Shown here: positions 2,952 through 18,163 of the stretch, in pieces | Layout: every line of letters starts with the position of its first letter | Numbering within the stretch: the stretch's first letter is position 1 | Assembly (NCBI GenBank): GCA_963794325.1 | Contig: CAWCDG010000002.1 | Span: 448,001-512,000 of the forward strand | Direction: 5' to 3' | Source: an uncultured delta proteobacterium | GTDB lineage: Bacteria; Desulfobacterota; Binatia; Binatales; Binataceae | Length of the DNA stretch: 64,000 bases | Made by a program: the position numbers and the translations under genes | Notes under the pieces: generated by a model | What the model was told of the DNA's origin: nothing | Seen by the model: the letters and a program-made list of their open reading frames with translations, nothing else | Databases searched by the model: none

Positions 2952-3147
2952 GCGCGACTCTACCGCTGAGATTAACACACCCCTTTCGGACCGGCCAACC
3001 GAACCCTTGAGCATCGAGCAACTGTATTGACAGTTTGGGCTGGCGTGTTTAATTAGTCGGTTGCCTTGTGGTGGATCGAATTGTCGTGCCACTCTGTTCG
3101 TCAATTGATTGGAACCATCGCGATGGCTCTGGAATTGGACGACCTGA

Positions 3148-3915
3148 ATGATTGAGGTTAAAAACCTAACTAAAGCCTACGGCAACTTTGTCGCGGTTAA
3201 AGACGTATCGTTCAAAGCCGAGAGCGGTTCTATCCTCGGCTTCCTCGGCCCCAACGGCGCTGGCAAGACCACGACGATGCGAATCATCACCGGCTACATG
3301 CCTGCGACTGCGGGCACCGTGGTGATTGACGGACTCGATATTTTCTCGCAGTCGCTCGAGGCACGCCGCAAAATCGGCTACCTGCCCGAGAATCCGCCGC
3401 TGTATCCTGACATGCGGGTCGAGGCTTATCTGCGATTCGTCGCGAAACTGCGCGATGTTCCGCGCGCAAAGATTGACCAGGCGCTCGATCACGTTCTCGA
3501 CGTTTGCGGACTGACCGACATGGCGCATCGGATATGTGGCCAACTCTCGAAAGGCTATCGACAGCGCGTCGGGCTGGCCCAGGCGCTGATTCACGATCCG
3601 CCCGTGCTGGTCCTCGACGAGCCGACCATCGGTCTCGACCCGCGTCAGATTCACGAAATCCGCGGACTGATTCACAATCTATCGGGCAATCGGACGGTCG
3701 TGCTCTCGACCCACATCCTGCCCGAGGTCTCGCAGATCTGCGACAAGGTCGTCATCATTGCCGACGGCCGCGTCGTGCTCGAGGAATATCTGAAGAAGCT
3801 GCCCGCCGGGACTTCGCTCGAAGATATTTTCCTGACCGCGATTACCAAGGAGCATCACGAGGACGGCGCCACGGCCGAGGAAAAGCTGGAGGAGGTCGGA
3901 GCGGGGCATACCTAG
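3148..3915 (+). CDS. ABC transporter ATP-binding protein (GldA-like)
   Basis: Walker A GPNGAGKT, signature LSKGYRQR, Walker B VLVLDEP. Confidence 0.95.
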   Translation: MIEVKNLTKAYGNFVAVKDVSFKAESGSILGFLGPNGAGKTTTMRIITGYMPATAGTVVIDGLDIFSQSLEARRKIGYLPENPPLYPDMRVEAYLRFVAKLRDVPRAKIDQALDHVLDVCGLTDMAHRICGQLSKGYRQRVGLAQALIHDPPVLVLDEPTIGLDPRQIHEIRGLIHNLSGNRTVVLSTHILPEVSQICDKVVIIADGRVVLEEYLKKLPAGTSLEDIFLTAITKEHHEDGATAEEKLEEVGAGHT

Positions 3916-7824: not shown

Positions 7825-8088
7825 ATGGCCGCTGAAAAGACAACGACAGTGCGTATGGAAAGCCGCACCCTTAAACGCGTCGATAGTCTCGCTAATGCTC
7901 TGAGCCGTTCACGTGCATGGGTGATAAATCAGGCGGTCGAACGCTACCTCGACTACGAAGAATGGTTCGTCGGCGAGGTCAAGCATGCGCTCAAGCAAGT
8001 CGAAGCGGGCGAGGTTCTGGGCCACGGCGAGGTGGTAAAGAGGTTGGAGCGAAAGCGTGCGGCTGGACTGGGCTCGAGACGCCGCTAG
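7825..8088 (+). CDS. CopG/RHH-family antitoxin
   Basis: Ribbon-helix-helix pattern TTTVRM...LANALSRSRAWVINQAVERYL; overlaps the downstream toxin. Confidence 0.88.
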   Translation: MAAEKTTTVRMESRTLKRVDSLANALSRSRAWVINQAVERYLDYEEWFVGEVKHALKQVEAGEVLGHGEVVKRLERKRAAGLGSRRR

Positions 8089-8341
8089 CGACCTCGATTC
8101 GATCGAGGAGTACATTGGGCGCAACAATCCTGAAGCTGCGTTTCGAGCCCTCGCAGAAATCGTTGGACAAGTGGAAATACTGACCCAACACCCGGGTATC
8201 GGACGACCGGGCCGCGTCGATGGCACCCGCGAATTGGTGATCGCGGGACTGCCTTACGTCGTCGCATATCTTCATCGGGACGACACTGTCACTGTGTTGC
8301 GCGTACTTCACGGTGCGATGAAATGGCCTAAGCGGTTCTGA
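8057..8341 (+). CDS. RelE/ParE family type II toxin
   Basis: MRLDW..A..DLDSIEEYI, HPGIGRPGRVDGTRELVI, VLRVLHGA. Confidence 0.92.
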   Translation: MRLDWARDAASDLDSIEEYIGRNNPEAAFRALAEIVGQVEILTQHPGIGRPGRVDGTRELVIAGLPYVVAYLHRDDTVTVLRVLHGAMKWPKRF

Positions 8342-10402: not shown

Positions 10403-11119
10403 CTACTTCGCTGGAACATAGCGGCCGAGATACCTGCCCTTCTCACTTGTCACGATCAGGTACGGATTCCACTTCAGCAACCGCGTGGCAAGGCGCGGCG
10501 TCATGTCGGGGCGGATTGTCTGTGGATTCGAGTTCATCGCATCGAGCGCGCGCGGCGACGGTCCAGCTTGGTCGATCGTCCCGAGCAGCACTCCGTCTGA
10601 ATTGAGCACCACGGCGCGCGGCGCCGAGTAATGGGCCGCGGCCGGATCGACGGAATCGTCGGGGCCAAGGCGCGCGAGATCATCGCTCATGAATTCGGCG
10701 ATCCGCACGCGGTCCGAGTAATGAATCCAGAACGATCGCAGGCCAGGCGCAAGGTTGTTCACGAAATATCGAAGCGCGCGCAGCCGCTCTGAGAGCGGAG
10801 CTGGCGGATCCATCGGCAATCCACGAATCATCCAATCGACTTTGCCGCGGAAGTAGTGGCGGACCTCGGTGAAGCTGATCAATTCGAGCTGCGCCGCAGC
10901 TCTCGCGCTCAGATCTCACAAGGAGTCGCGGCAATAGGCGACCACCGGGCAGTTGCTGTCGAGCAAATTCGGGGCATCGAGCAGGATGCGGCCGACAGGA
11001 AGATGAATCGCGCCGCGAATGTGCGTTCTCCGGTATTCGTGCGAGGGCAGAACGTCGACGATCTGCACTGCGCGAGCGGCGAGCATCGCGGAGAGTTCAC
11101 GATGCCGGATTTCACGCAC
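10403..11119 (-). CDS. rhodanese + CBS-pair protein with in-frame TGA (putative selenoprotein, 238 aa)
   Basis: Track ORFs 10916..11119 and 10403..10882 share a frame, separated only by TGA 10916-10918: IVDVLP..EY...HIRGAIHLP...VVAYCRDSL*DLSARAAAQLELISFTEVRHYFRGKVDW, then CBS-like repeats. Confidence 0.78.
10877..10918 (-). promoter_or_regulatory. putative bacterial SECIS element
   Basis: mRNA UGA-GAUCUGAGCGCGA-GAGCUGC-GGC-GCAGCUC-GAAUUGAUC: 7-bp stem (10886-10902), loop starting with G 20 nt after UGA, possible lower GAUC/GAUC pairing. Confidence 0.6.
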
Positions 11120-11121
11120 GT

Positions 11122-12483
11122 CTAGCGCCGCATTGCGGCCAGCGCATCGAGCGCGGTTTGCACGATGGTCTCGCCGCTGCCGGCGGCGATGCGCGCCGTC
11201 TCGACTTCGTAACCGCGCTCGGGGTACGCGGCTCGGGTAGGAATGTAGCCGATGAGATCGTTGCAGTATCCGGCGACGAAAGTTTGCGCGAAGTGCGGGT
11301 TAGCTTTTATCGCGAGGCCGAGCTCGACGAAGAGTTCGCCCGGGATGCCGACTATTGCGATGTCGCCGACTGTGACGACGGTGATCGCGGTTGCGAGTTC
11401 GTGCCGCTCGATGTTGACGCGGCGGTCGCGGTGATTTTGCTCCTCGATGGCTTCCAGAGCGGCCAGCGAGGTCAGCGATTGCGCGTGATGGTCGCGCAGG
11501 CGCTTCAGTTGATAGCCGTCGCCGCCGCGATGGTTGTCGAGCGAGGATTGGGTCTGCGCGGCGCAAGCGCGTGCGGTCGCGAGATCGGCGTCGTTGTCCT
11601 TGAGCGCGAGCTTCAGCGGGATCCGGCGCGCCGCGATGCGCGCGTCGGCGATCGAGTGCGCATGCTCAAGCGCGTCGAAGCTGCCTCGACCCATCGCGCG
11701 GCCGTTGTTTTCCGCGACTTCGAAATTGCCGCGGCTGCGCGGATCGACGTTGCCGGTCGCACCCTGGATGAAAATCGAAACTGGTCGCGGGCCGCCGGCG
11801 GAAGCCGCGGATGCGATTTCGTCCATCGCGAAGCCAGGCCAGTCGCGCGAGTAGAGCAGATTGTCCTCGCACAGCACGACGCCGTGGCACGGATAGTTCA
11901 TCAGGGTCGCGATTGCACTGCCGTCCGCGCGGTATGCGCCGAGTACCGACGCTTGCGAATCGGCCGGACCGGAGTGGTTGGCGGCTATCTGAATCTGATG
12001 GCTCGGGCGCAGCAGCCGGCGATGAGTGCCGAGCGTGAACGGTGCAGCCGCCGCGCGGATCGTTGCGCGTTCGAGATTGGCGTTCGCCTCGATGATTGCG
12101 TCAGCAATCATGCCCGGCAGCGCGCGTTCCCATTCCAGGTCGCGGCCCTCGGAGGGCTTCGCGTCCGGGCGAGGGGTCGCGAAAATATTGAAGGCGGGCG
12201 CGGAGTGAGTATGAGTGGCGCAGACCAGGATCGAATCGGCCGGGATGTCGGTTTTTGCGGCCACGCGATTGCGGATGTCGTCGGCGATGCGGATCCCGAT
12301 CGCGAGCACATCGACGCCCGCGATTGCGATCTTGTTCTTGCCGTCGCTCAGCACGATCGCCTGCGCGGCGAGGTCGTCGTGTACGCCTGCGTTCAGGCCC
12401 ACTCGATTGCCATAACCGAGCATCGCGAGTCCGACCGGCGGTTCGAGTTTCACGCGCGCGGCGCCGGCATAGAGCGCACTCAT
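11122..12483 (-). CDS. neutral/alkaline ceramidase N-terminal domain family hydrolase
   Basis: GVHDDL, CATHTHSAP, NYPCHG, GIPGELF, GYIPT motifs; ATG 12483 overlaps the upstream stop. Confidence 0.85.
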   Translation of the reverse strand: MSALYAGAARVKLEPPVGLAMLGYGNRVGLNAGVHDDLAAQAIVLSDGKNKIAIAGVDVLAIGIRIADDIRNRVAAKTDIPADSILVCATHTHSAPAFNIFATPRPDAKPSEGRDLEWERALPGMIADAIIEANANLERATIRAAAAPFTLGTHRRLLRPSHQIQIAANHSGPADSQASVLGAYRADGSAIATLMNYPCHGVVLCEDNLLYSRDWPGFAMDEIASAASAGGPRPVSIFIQGATGNVDPRSRGNFEVAENNGRAMGRGSFDALEHAHSIADARIAARRIPLKLALKDNDADLATARACAAQTQSSLDNHRGGDGYQLKRLRDHHAQSLTSLAALEAIEEQNHRDRRVNIERHELATAITVVTVGDIAIVGIPGELFVELGLAIKANPHFAQTFVAGYCNDLIGYIPTRAAYPERGYEVETARIAAGSGETIVQTALDALAAMRR

Positions 12484-13730
12484 TTCAGTTTGGCCGAGGC
12501 GATCTCGGCTGCTCCGGAAGCCACTTTGGCGGCCGCGCCGACAATGTCGTCGAAATCGCGGTCGCCGCCGAGCAGGCATTCATGCGGTATCGATACGAGC
12601 GCACGCTCGAACAACCGCTCGGCAACGGGGCAATCGATCGAGATGTTATCGGGATTTGCGCCGGCGAGTTCACACGCTTTGCGATACGCGGCGGACTCGC
12701 GCGGGAACAGTGACGATCGATAGACCGGATCGTTGGACACGCCGCATGGGATGCCTTCAGCACGCAACGCCCGCACGAAGCGATTGCGCGAGAGGCCGAG
12801 CGTGGTCTCATCGACCATGAAAACGAAAGCGTAGATCGTCTCGCGAGTGACGCGTGGATCGCGAGCGACGGGACTCAGTCCCTTGATTGCTGCGAGGCCC
12901 TTACGCAGCCGGGCGGCGGCGCGGCTCTTGTGCTCGATCTGATCCGGCAGGCGCGCAAGCTGCGCGAGCAGGATGCCGCACTGCCATTCCGTCATCCGGT
13001 AATTCGCGCCCATCAGCGGGCCCTCGAAATCGTCGTCGGGGCGGCGGCGTCCGCAATTGATGAGTGACTGGCATCGCTGCTCGAGTTCGGAGTCGTTGGT
13101 GGTGATCATTCCGCCTTCGCCCGCCGTCATCGGCTTCGAGGATTGAAAACTGAAGCATCCGAGAGCGCCGTGAGTTCCGACGCCTCGATCGCGGAACTGA
13201 GCGCCCGGGACATGCGCGCAATCCTCGACGATCGGAATCGAATGCGCGCGCGAAATTTCTGCGAGTGCGTCGAGATCCGCGAGTGACGCGCCGTAGTGGA
13301 CGGGGATGATCGCTTTAGTGCGCCGCGTGATCAGGCGCTTGACGGATTCGGGATCGATGCATGCGTTGACGGCGCTTACGTCGGCGAACACCGGACGCGC
13401 CATACATGCGATCGCTGCGTAAGGGGTCGCGGCGAAAGTGATTGCGGGGACGATGACCTCGTCGCCGGCTCCGATGCCGAGTGCTTTGAGCGCGACCTCG
13501 AGTGCACTGGTGCCGGACGTGGTCGGGATCGCGAAGCGCGCGTTCTGATATGCGGCGAATGCGGCGGCGAACTCACTGGCCTTGCGATTCGGGCTGGGAT
13601 ACCCACCCCAGCTTTGCGACGTGAGTACATCTTCGAGCTGCGCGCGTTCGCGAGCGTCGAAGACCGGCCACGCCGGGAAGGGGAGGGTGCGAAGCGGCTG
13701 TCCGCCAAGGATTGCGAGCGTCGAGGGCAT
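12480..13730 (-). CDS. DegT/DnrJ/EryC1/StrS PLP aminotransferase (AHBA-synthase-like)
   Basis: SGTSAL, EDCAH, FSFQSSKPMTAGEGG (PLP lysine), GANYRM. Confidence 0.92.
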   Translation of the reverse strand: MPSTLAILGGQPLRTLPFPAWPVFDARERAQLEDVLTSQSWGGYPSPNRKASEFAAAFAAYQNARFAIPTTSGTSALEVALKALGIGAGDEVIVPAITFAATPYAAIACMARPVFADVSAVNACIDPESVKRLITRRTKAIIPVHYGASLADLDALAEISRAHSIPIVEDCAHVPGAQFRDRGVGTHGALGCFSFQSSKPMTAGEGGMITTNDSELEQRCQSLINCGRRRPDDDFEGPLMGANYRMTEWQCGILLAQLARLPDQIEHKSRAAARLRKGLAAIKGLSPVARDPRVTRETIYAFVFMVDETTLGLSRNRFVRALRAEGIPCGVSNDPVYRSSLFPRESAAYRKACELAGANPDNISIDCPVAERLFERALVSIPHECLLGGDRDFDDIVGAAAKVASGAAEIASAKLK

Positions 13731-16980: not shown

Positions 16981-18163
16981 TCAGCGGCGGTTTTCGCGCG
17001 CGATGGCGCGAACGGTTTCGATAACGTAGGCGACGTCCTCGTCGGTCATCGCGGCGTAGATTGGAAGCGACAAGCATCGGCTGAAAATGTCTTCGGCCAC
17101 CGGAAAATCGCCGTCGCGATAACCGTACATGCGCTGATAGTAGTGCATCGTATGCAGTGGGATGCAGTGCACCGAGCATCCGACGCCGCGCTCGCGCAGA
17201 ATCTCGACGAACTGATTGCGCCCGATCTTCAGGCGCTCGGGACGGATGCGCAGCACATAGAGATGCCAGGCGTGCTCGATGCCGGGCTCGGAATACGCGG
17301 CCTGCAGCGCGTCGTCGCCGCGGAAGGCCTCGTTGTAGGCGCGCGCGATTTCGCCGCGTCGCCGCATGAAGTCGTCGGCGCGCTTGAGCTGAGCCAATCC
17401 GATCGCGGCGTGCACGTCGGACAGGTTGTACTTGAAGCCCATGTCGTGGATTTCGTAATACCACGAGCCGCTCTTGTCGTAGCGCTTCCACGCGTCCTTG
17501 TTCATCCCGTGCAAACTGGCGACCGCGATTTTTTCCGCGAGCGCATCGTCGGACGTGGTGATCATGCCGCCCTCGGCGGTGGTGAAATTCTTGGTGGCGT
17601 AGAAAGCTGAAGCATGTGAGGTCGCCGATCGTGCCGATTTTCGCCATCCCGCGGCCGTCCATATGGCGCGCGGATCCGGCCGCGTGCGCGGCGTCCTCGA
17701 CGACTTTCAAATCGTAGCTGTGCGCGATGTTGAGGATCCGATCCATGTCGCAGGCGTGCCCGGCGAAGTGCACCGGCAGGATCGCGCGGACTCGTTTGTG
17801 CGCGCCGCTCTCGAGCGCCTCCTCGATGCGCGCGGGATTGATGTTGAAGGTTCCGGGATCGACGTCGACGAACACCGGCCGCGCGCCCAGGTAGCCGAGA
17901 ATCTCGGCGGTCGCGGTGAAGGTGAACGGCGTCGTGATAACCTCGTCACCGGGCCCGATGCCCAGCGCCCACAACGAGAGATGAAGCGCGCCGGTGCAAT
18001 GCGACAGCGCGAGCGCGTGCTTCGCGCCGACGTACTCCGCGAATTCGCTCTCGAAGCGCTTGGCCTTGGGGCCGGTGGTGATCCATCCGGAGCGCAGCGT
18101 GTCGAGAACCTCGCGCTCCTCGTCGGGTCCGATCGACGGACGATGAAATGCTATTTGTCGCAT
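16981..18163 (-). CDS. DegT/ArnB-like sugar aminotransferase, frameshifted at about 17604
   Basis: [11 protein letters not shown] and EDAAH; removing one base of AAA 17603-17605 restores [17 protein letters not shown] and joins ORF 16981..17565. Confidence 0.88.

Follow-up and report, generated by a model that had tools for sequence, protein, structure and literature searches.

Known rhodanese selenoproteins and related folds

Selenocysteine (Sec)-containing rhodanese-like families have already been described, as the initial annotation of the locus studied here had noted, and five forms are listed in the catalogue of PMC13188914, which, in the parts consulted, mentions neither CBS domains nor ion channels and separates families by architecture only implicitly. 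Form 1 is given the motif UxxS in Table 1 of that catalogue, and its sequences in the consulted part of the deep-Sep supplement (PMC12013277) read Cys-x4-Sec-x2-Ser. In the form 1 protein WP_010941598.1 (loop FYCGGVTUVLS), this arrangement lies within a PF00581 domain and in the same column as in our protein, so the idea that the Cys-x4-Sec motif was uncatalogued was rejected. However, in the parts of the supplement shown, the representatives of form 1 start with an N-terminal leader, repeat the rhodanese domain two or three times and show no CBS domain, whereas our protein lacks a leader and combines a single rhodanese domain, whose loop is acidic (C-x-D-x-x-U-D), with a CBS-like pair.

Two further families share features of the loop. 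TsoB (NF045694; form 5, UxxxxU) has its second Sec in the same column (YUAGLAUVRS in the member at locus L167), but it contains two Sec residues, DsbD and thioredoxin domains and about 580 aa; our protein, with one Sec and no DsbD, scored 18.1 bits against this model (cut-off 805). The LYCAU rhodanese (NF041203; form 3, CxU) also combines Cys and Sec in the rhodanese loop, but is a single domain with Cys-x-Sec spacing, and our Cys-x4-Sec protein scored 20.6 bits against it (cut-off 115). No NCBIfam model exceeded its cut-off for this protein, its paralogues or the wider homologues.

The closest solved relative of the rhodanese domain is BH2092 from Bacillus halodurans (3nhv, 3o3w), the top Foldseek match (E 3.8e-6), with a Cys-x4-Cys loop that aligns without gaps (Z 12.5, rmsd 2.2 and 106 aligned residues, tied with several other rhodaneses). 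It has Cys instead of Sec, no CBS domain and 24% identity, and the titles of its structural genomics entries give no function. The canonical sulfurtransferases GlpE, PspE and TSTD1 share the fold (Z 9.6-12.5) and the first Cys, but with a loop that is shorter by two residues and in which an Arg precedes the Ser, as observed in 6mxv. In canonical rhodaneses, the loop Arg binds the anionic substrate. The Sec site itself is known, and the rhodanese-CBS architecture appears new relative to the consulted parts of the catalogue (PMC13188914). No description of a rhodanese-CBS selenoprotein was found in the literature searched, coverage of which was partial, and none was found there of a fusion of a Sec rhodanese with a potassium channel.

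A single reading frame interrupted by UGA

The window analysed is a stretch of 64,000 nucleotides from an uncultured delta proteobacterium of the Binataceae (contig CAWCDG010000002.1, positions 448,001 to 512,000). The features of the gene concerned and of its upstream neighbour are as follows:

11122..12489, minus strand: upstream ceramidase-like gene (PF04734), with its stop 2 nt before the GTG of the predicted selenoprotein gene
11119..10403, minus strand: single coding sequence of the predicted selenoprotein, 238 codons and 238 aa, GTG start, TAG stop
10916..10918, minus strand: in-frame TGA (codon 68), predicted Sec; homologous DNA has TGA or TGC/TGT only
10886..10902, minus strand: predicted upper stem of a bacterial SECIS element, 7 bp, with a 3-nt loop (GGC) beginning 20 nt past the UGA

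Standard ORF calling yields two pieces, 10916..11119 (67 aa) and 10403..10882 (159 aa), which very likely correspond to one 238-residue selenoprotein, judging from the sequence. The only internal TGA is codon 68 (10918-10916), and its context in the translation is YCRDSL-U-DLSARAAAQL. The initial annotation had proposed a single 238-codon frame interrupted by one TGA, split by gene callers, with a rhodanese domain completed only beyond the TGA, and these three points were confirmed: the Pfam Rhodanese match (residues 8-97, E 8.5e-12) spans codon 68. The gene is on the minus strand, and a plus-strand reading of 10403..11119 was rejected for this reason. The TGA was unchanged in the short-read contigs of three of four runs, all from one study, with no sense codon at this position; since these contigs give no other letter, an assembly error at the TGA was excluded.

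The ceramidase-like gene and the rhodanese-CBS gene are likely to be co-transcribed, but the former probably lies outside the function of the latter, synteny between them being confined to close relatives. The local gene order (DegT, ceramidase-like, GNAT, ferredoxin, acpS) was kept in close relatives and lost in distant ones, and was therefore rejected as a functional clue. Two other features of this region were recorded. The DegT-like aminotransferase gene (about 18170-16981, minus strand), the one other disruption of the window that was examined, has a one-base frameshift in a short T run near 17600, which is probably an assembly error. A small overlapping gene pair at 7825-8341 (plus strand), which we take to resemble a ribbon-helix-helix antitoxin and a RelE/ParE-like toxin, was present in the vicinity of the rhodanese-CBS gene in 5-6 of the 45 related loci.

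Sec and Cys forms among the homologues

The search of 61 genomes led to the extraction of 30 loci, 22 with TGA (including that of the window itself) and eight with TGC at codon 68, and a scan of species-representative genomes gave 38 loci, mostly from Ca. Binatus, Ca. Binataceae and uncultured deltaproteobacterium (26 TGA, 11 TGC and one frameshifted locus, which was dropped). After merging and de-duplication, 61 distinct homologous loci were retained, three being left out (a frameshift, a channel fusion and a single domain); the codon-68 column had TGA in 47, TGC in 14 and no other codon. The metagenome scan identified at least 542 confirmed relatives, the best 80 of which correspond to 78 distinct loci with TGA in 74 and Cys in four; TGA dominates even though Cys was favoured by one of the two patterns used in the search. 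The initial annotation had named a residue other than Cys in homologues as evidence against Sec. Such a residue was absent from all homologous DNA loci (61 and 78 distinct loci), and the one exception, a Trp at column 68 in a database protein (P0008), is known from a protein record only.

More distantly related proteins in which the CBS pair is clear (e.g. P0245) were found in other families of the Binatia class and in plasmids of Pseudonocardia (two), Rubrobacter and Nonomuraea, with TGA in the first three and TGC in Nonomuraea. On the evidence of plasmid records and metagenome contigs, from which the cross-phylum spread is known, the rhodanese-CBS architecture is present in both Binatia and Actinomycetota. 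RefSeq lists the gene as two CDS in both Pseudonocardia plasmids, and the closest database matches to our protein are mostly cut halves of 158-170 aa.

A quick tree search (unrooted; 57 of the 61 rows, four short ones left out) required at least six TGA/TGC switches, three of them forced by strong branches, and placed the Cys forms among the TGA forms. The simplest reading of this pattern, on an unrooted tree, would be repeated loss of Sec. A third loop Cys at column 66 (C-R-D-C-L-C; Ser66 in the window) was observed in 6/8 Cys-form versus 1/22 TGA-form orthologues of the genus, as if compensating for the loss of Sec, the Cys forms being partly related to each other. We conclude that codon 68 is almost certainly decoded as Sec, a prediction made from DNA and protein comparisons.

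The hairpin downstream of the UGA

The hairpin stem begins 13 nt past the UGA and has an energy of -11.5 kcal/mol. The bacterial SECIS geometry attributed to it earlier agrees, on all points, with the model given in the consulted part of PMC13188914 (loop of 3-9 nt with a G in the first two places, stem of 4-16 bp, 16-37 nt from the UGA, <=-7.5 kcal/mol). However, the hairpin reaches significance only through comparison with homologues, and not alone. Its folding was no better than chance against shuffles (z -0.34 to +0.83 in 5/5 folding windows), Rfam gave no match for the region at E<=1, and about 7% of TGA triplets drawn at random from the genome (289/4000) fitted the bacterial SECIS model when it was applied loosely, a crude test that misses the genome's own selD (5-bp upper stem). 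A tight pattern matched 0.09% of genome TGAs, but was drawn after the fact from the window hairpin itself, and we therefore prefer the looser figure.

In the homologues, all seven pairs are intact in 43/47 TGA genes versus 3/14 TGC genes, and the loop starts with G in 47/47 and 12/14, respectively. Stem cells were paired at 98.7% in 45 distinct TGA rows, a value reached by 0/500 shuffles, and at 85.7% in 14 TGC rows, matched by 175/500 shuffles. One stem pair shows a compensatory change from U-A to C-G in nine TGA rows, and another swaps A-U and G-U in 21 rows. Among the best 80 of at least 542 metagenome relatives, the outer six pairs hold in 72/74 TGA genes and in 1/4 Cys genes. Codon +6 is GCT in 22/22 TGA genes and 4/8 TGC genes, GCT making up 7% of the Ala codons of the genome. 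Stem conservation partly mirrors a conserved peptide (RAAAQL/RAAWRL), and the stem and codon statistics should not be taken as probabilities, because the relatives are not independent. Nevertheless, relaxation of the stem in precisely the genes that have lost Sec is the behaviour expected of a functional SECIS element, and binding of SelB to this hairpin would lead to the insertion of Sec at codon 68.

Selenocysteine machinery of the genome

The presence of selA, selB, selC and selD, proposed earlier as a check on Sec decoding, was established: selA, selB and selD scored above their cut-offs, and a tRNA-Sec was found, the sole tRNA with a UCA anticodon in the genome. The selB and selD genes are adjacent (G000:C4:1158546-1161572, minus strand), with selA and tRNA-Sec elsewhere on C4. 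The selD gene carries an in-frame TGA of its own, followed 17 nt past its UGA by a hairpin with a similar C-GGC-G top. TGA is the commonest stop of the genome (704 of 1470 long coding-like ORFs), and the genome has therefore not undergone general recoding. Among the relatives, selA was found in 20 of 21 genomes with the TGA form (it was missing from one 64% complete genome) versus four of eight with the Cys form, and it was above the cut-off in all four TGA carriers of other families tested. No Sec genes were found on the four plasmid records searched, a result that applies to the plasmids only.

Domain architecture

The protein can be divided as follows:

10802..11119, minus strand: rhodanese-fold domain, residues about 1-106 (Pfam PF00581, 8-97)
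10931..10933, minus strand: Cys63, at the canonical position of the rhodanese catalytic Cys, invariant in 65/65 aligned full-length homologues
10709..10792, minus strand: 28-residue two-helix insert, residues 110-137, in 45/45 Binataceae-type sequences and 0/20 wider homologues
10406..10708, minus strand: degenerate CBS-like pair, residues about 138-238, the second CBS without its terminal helix

Tyr62, Cys63, Asp65, Sec/Cys68, Asp69 and Arg73 are invariant in the 65 full-length sequences, and the loop has the consensus Y-C-x-D-x-x-U/C-D-L/M-S-x-R. It is acidic, with two invariant Asp residues, exceeds the canonical rhodanese loop by two residues and has no Arg in front of the Ser. The 28-residue insert contains the most amphipathic 11-mer of the protein.

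The CBS pair described in the initial annotation stands for the wider family, since P0245 has two CBS stretches (E 9e-14); the window protein itself gives one weak Pfam CBS match (residues 193-232, 25.7 bits, cut-off 24), so the assignment of a pair rests on the homologues. In the Binataceae type, the second CBS stops after the last strand, and an Asp is found at the usual column in 5/45 sequences versus 11/20 wider homologues. CBS pairs bind adenine nucleotides through this terminal Asp. With the second CBS truncated and the Asp so rare, adenine-nucleotide control is doubtful in this lineage.

The AlphaFold model (29 sequences; mean pLDDT 70.5) was confident for the rhodanese domain, within which it was least sure of the loop (pLDDT 67 for residues 61-70), and had helices at 109-134. 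The CBS-like part was weak (pLDDT 47-79), an MgtE CBS domain giving a weak fold match (E 1.5e-4, rmsd 15.8), and a single-sequence model of P0245 was poor (pLDDT 36).

Other Cys-x4-Sec rhodaneses

The same genome (G000) has two further Cys-x4-Sec rhodaneses, both of which alternate between TGA and Cys in relatives, with hairpins at 17-22 nt:

G000:C5:77708-78973 (L036:5709-6974), plus strand: rhodanese fused to an Ion_trans_2 pore, 421 aa, YCGKFT-U, with a TSIGYGD filter
G000:C4 (L037:4986-5477), plus strand: rhodanese with a signal-like leader, 163 aa, YCADLH-U

Among the loci extracted, relatives of the channel fusion had TGA in 18 distinct loci and TGC in four intact ones, and such proteins are found in the database both as full Cys forms and as cut 330-aa forms. 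The leader-bearing rhodanese had 27 TGA rows and six Cys rows in relatives, some of them duplicates. It is followed by catalase-like and cytochrome b561 genes, and one relative has tandem Sec and Cys copies. A fourth long-loop rhodanese of the genome, near 153714 of G000:C4 (minus strand; L038), is Cys-x4-Cys (YCSGGDC). The Cys-x4-Sec rhodanese thus occurs in three versions in the window genome, and the contexts seen overall are a CBS pair, a potassium-channel pore, DsbD and an exported single domain.

Several related arrangements were noted elsewhere. Multi-rhodanese form-1-like proteins with Cys-x4-TGA were found in other families of the phylum (L141, L144, L148, L154 and L160); in L154, a Cys-x4-Cys domain and a Cys-x4-Sec domain share a single chain. 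A complete TsoB gene, with a score of 991 bits (cut-off 805) and two in-frame TGAs, lies at L167:1729-3471, immediately downstream of one that encodes a Cys-x4-Cys rhodanese. A stand-alone short rhodanese (YCWDPG-TGA) is encoded on a Gemmatirosa plasmid (L202; NZ_CP007129.1, about 3001-3350), where the hairpin is in another register.

Metal-type neighbourhoods in the wider family

The neighbours of the best 80 of the at least 542 metagenome relatives included ArsR/SmtB (nine loci), DF-family proteins (eight), flavin disulfide oxidoreductases (six), MerB-like proteins (five), MerR (three) and selD (two); these are raw counts without a matched background, and 48 of the 80 loci are 3 kb or longer. 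A metal-type neighbourhood is a minority feature, found in about 14 of these 80 loci. A 12-locus "MerB" neighbour cluster was rejected as a chaining artefact, the direct search giving 5/80.

In the Pseudonocardia autotrophica plasmid (NZ_AP018921.1, L198:6478-8660), merR, a merB-like gene, a DF-family gene (NF049942, 105 bits, cut-off 70) and the split rhodanese-CBS gene form one run, which adjoins arsenic resistance genes; no selB was found on this plasmid. The Rubrobacter locus has a DF-like frame and an ArsR gene nearby. The DF neighbours in Pseudonocardia and Rubrobacter are of the Cys form where the N-terminus is visible. Metal-type neighbours were limited to one MerR match in the 45 Binatia loci, with no MerB-like or DF match in the window genome.

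Proposed function and alternatives

The explanation that we favour as a whole, and regard as somewhat better than an even bet, is that of a selenoprotein in which Cys63 and Sec68 form a reversible redox and soft-electrophile site, likely not that of a classical thiosulfate sulfurtransferase; for the Cys/Sec redox or soft-metal chemistry predicted, taken by itself, the chances appear evenly balanced. From the known biochemistry of Sec, the selenolate would attack a soft electrophile, whether sulfane sulfur, a disulfide or the ion of a soft metal or metalloid; Cys63 would resolve the product as an Se-S bridge or act as a second ligand, and a thiol or a flavin disulfide reductase would reset the site. 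The CBS-like part is likely to be a dimerising or regulatory module.

The initial annotation had instead proposed a sulfur/selenium transferase under nucleotide control. In such an enzyme, Cys63 would carry a persulfide or perselenide, with Sec68 assisting, and the activity would be switched by AMP/ATP at the CBS pair. The rhodanese fold with a Cys at the catalytic position, the true CBS pair of the wider homologues with a terminal Asp in 11 of 20, and the presence of selD next to the gene in two of the best 80 of at least 542 metagenome relatives are consistent with this proposal. However, the loop is longer by two residues and acidic, with two invariant Asp residues and without the canonical Arg, no NCBIfam sulfurtransferase model came near its cut-off, and the second CBS is truncated in this lineage, ending after the last strand. 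The proposal is weakly supported, and we consider it rather unlikely, although deserving of consideration.

Alternatively, the Cys/Sec rhodanese may be a sensor without turnover, passing its oxidation state to the attached output, which would be the CBS part here and the potassium-channel pore in the paralogue. The occurrence of the same Cys-x4-Sec module in fusion with a TxIGYGD pore, alone as an exported protein, and at the head of TsoB and multi-rhodanese proteins could be understood in this way, but the CBS pair shows no evident output activity, and the existence of exported stand-alone forms points to a carrier or an enzyme. A sensor would also overlap with the redox and soft-electrophile site that we favour, sequence alone being unable to separate the two, and we judge it improbable as a distinct explanation. 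Finally, it is extremely improbable that the TGA is a true stop (of a pseudogene, of the first of two genes or through a sequencing error) or that it encodes Trp or some other residue. In favour of this view, no other stop is as common in the genome, the assembly contains frameshifts and one database protein has a Trp at this column. Against it, the same TGA recurs in 47/61 and 74/78 loci from two phyla with Cys as the only alternative, the frame is open and conserved on both sides, termination there would truncate a folded domain at its active site, the TGA is seen in short-read contigs, and no tRNA other than tRNA-Sec has a UCA anticodon.

A broader and speculative proposal, which we put forward as unlikely but not negligible, is that soil bacteria use the Cys-x4-Sec rhodanese as a portable selenol module on varied outputs. 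The rhodanese-CBS form would belong, together with MerR/ArsR, a MerB-like lyase and a DF-family protein, to mercury/arsenic-type detoxification operons, as a selenium-dependent component that captures soft metals or organometals on its Sec.

Implications

The Sec site and the SECIS element are in themselves ordinary; what this family would add to the bacterial selenoproteome is a frequent and systematically mis-annotated architecture. It extends the predicted use of Sec to soil Binatia and Actinomycetota, beyond the anaerobes in which the Sec site was catalogued. The natural Sec/Cys pairs, with a stem that decays in the Cys genes, provide a clean set for studying Sec loss. As named cultured hosts exist (Pseudonocardia, Rubrobacter), direct tests are feasible both of Sec insertion and of the chemistry with metals or sulfur. 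If the detoxification proposal were true, this protein would represent a Sec-based resistance component of aerobic Actinomycetota and Binatia that is both abundant and unannotated.
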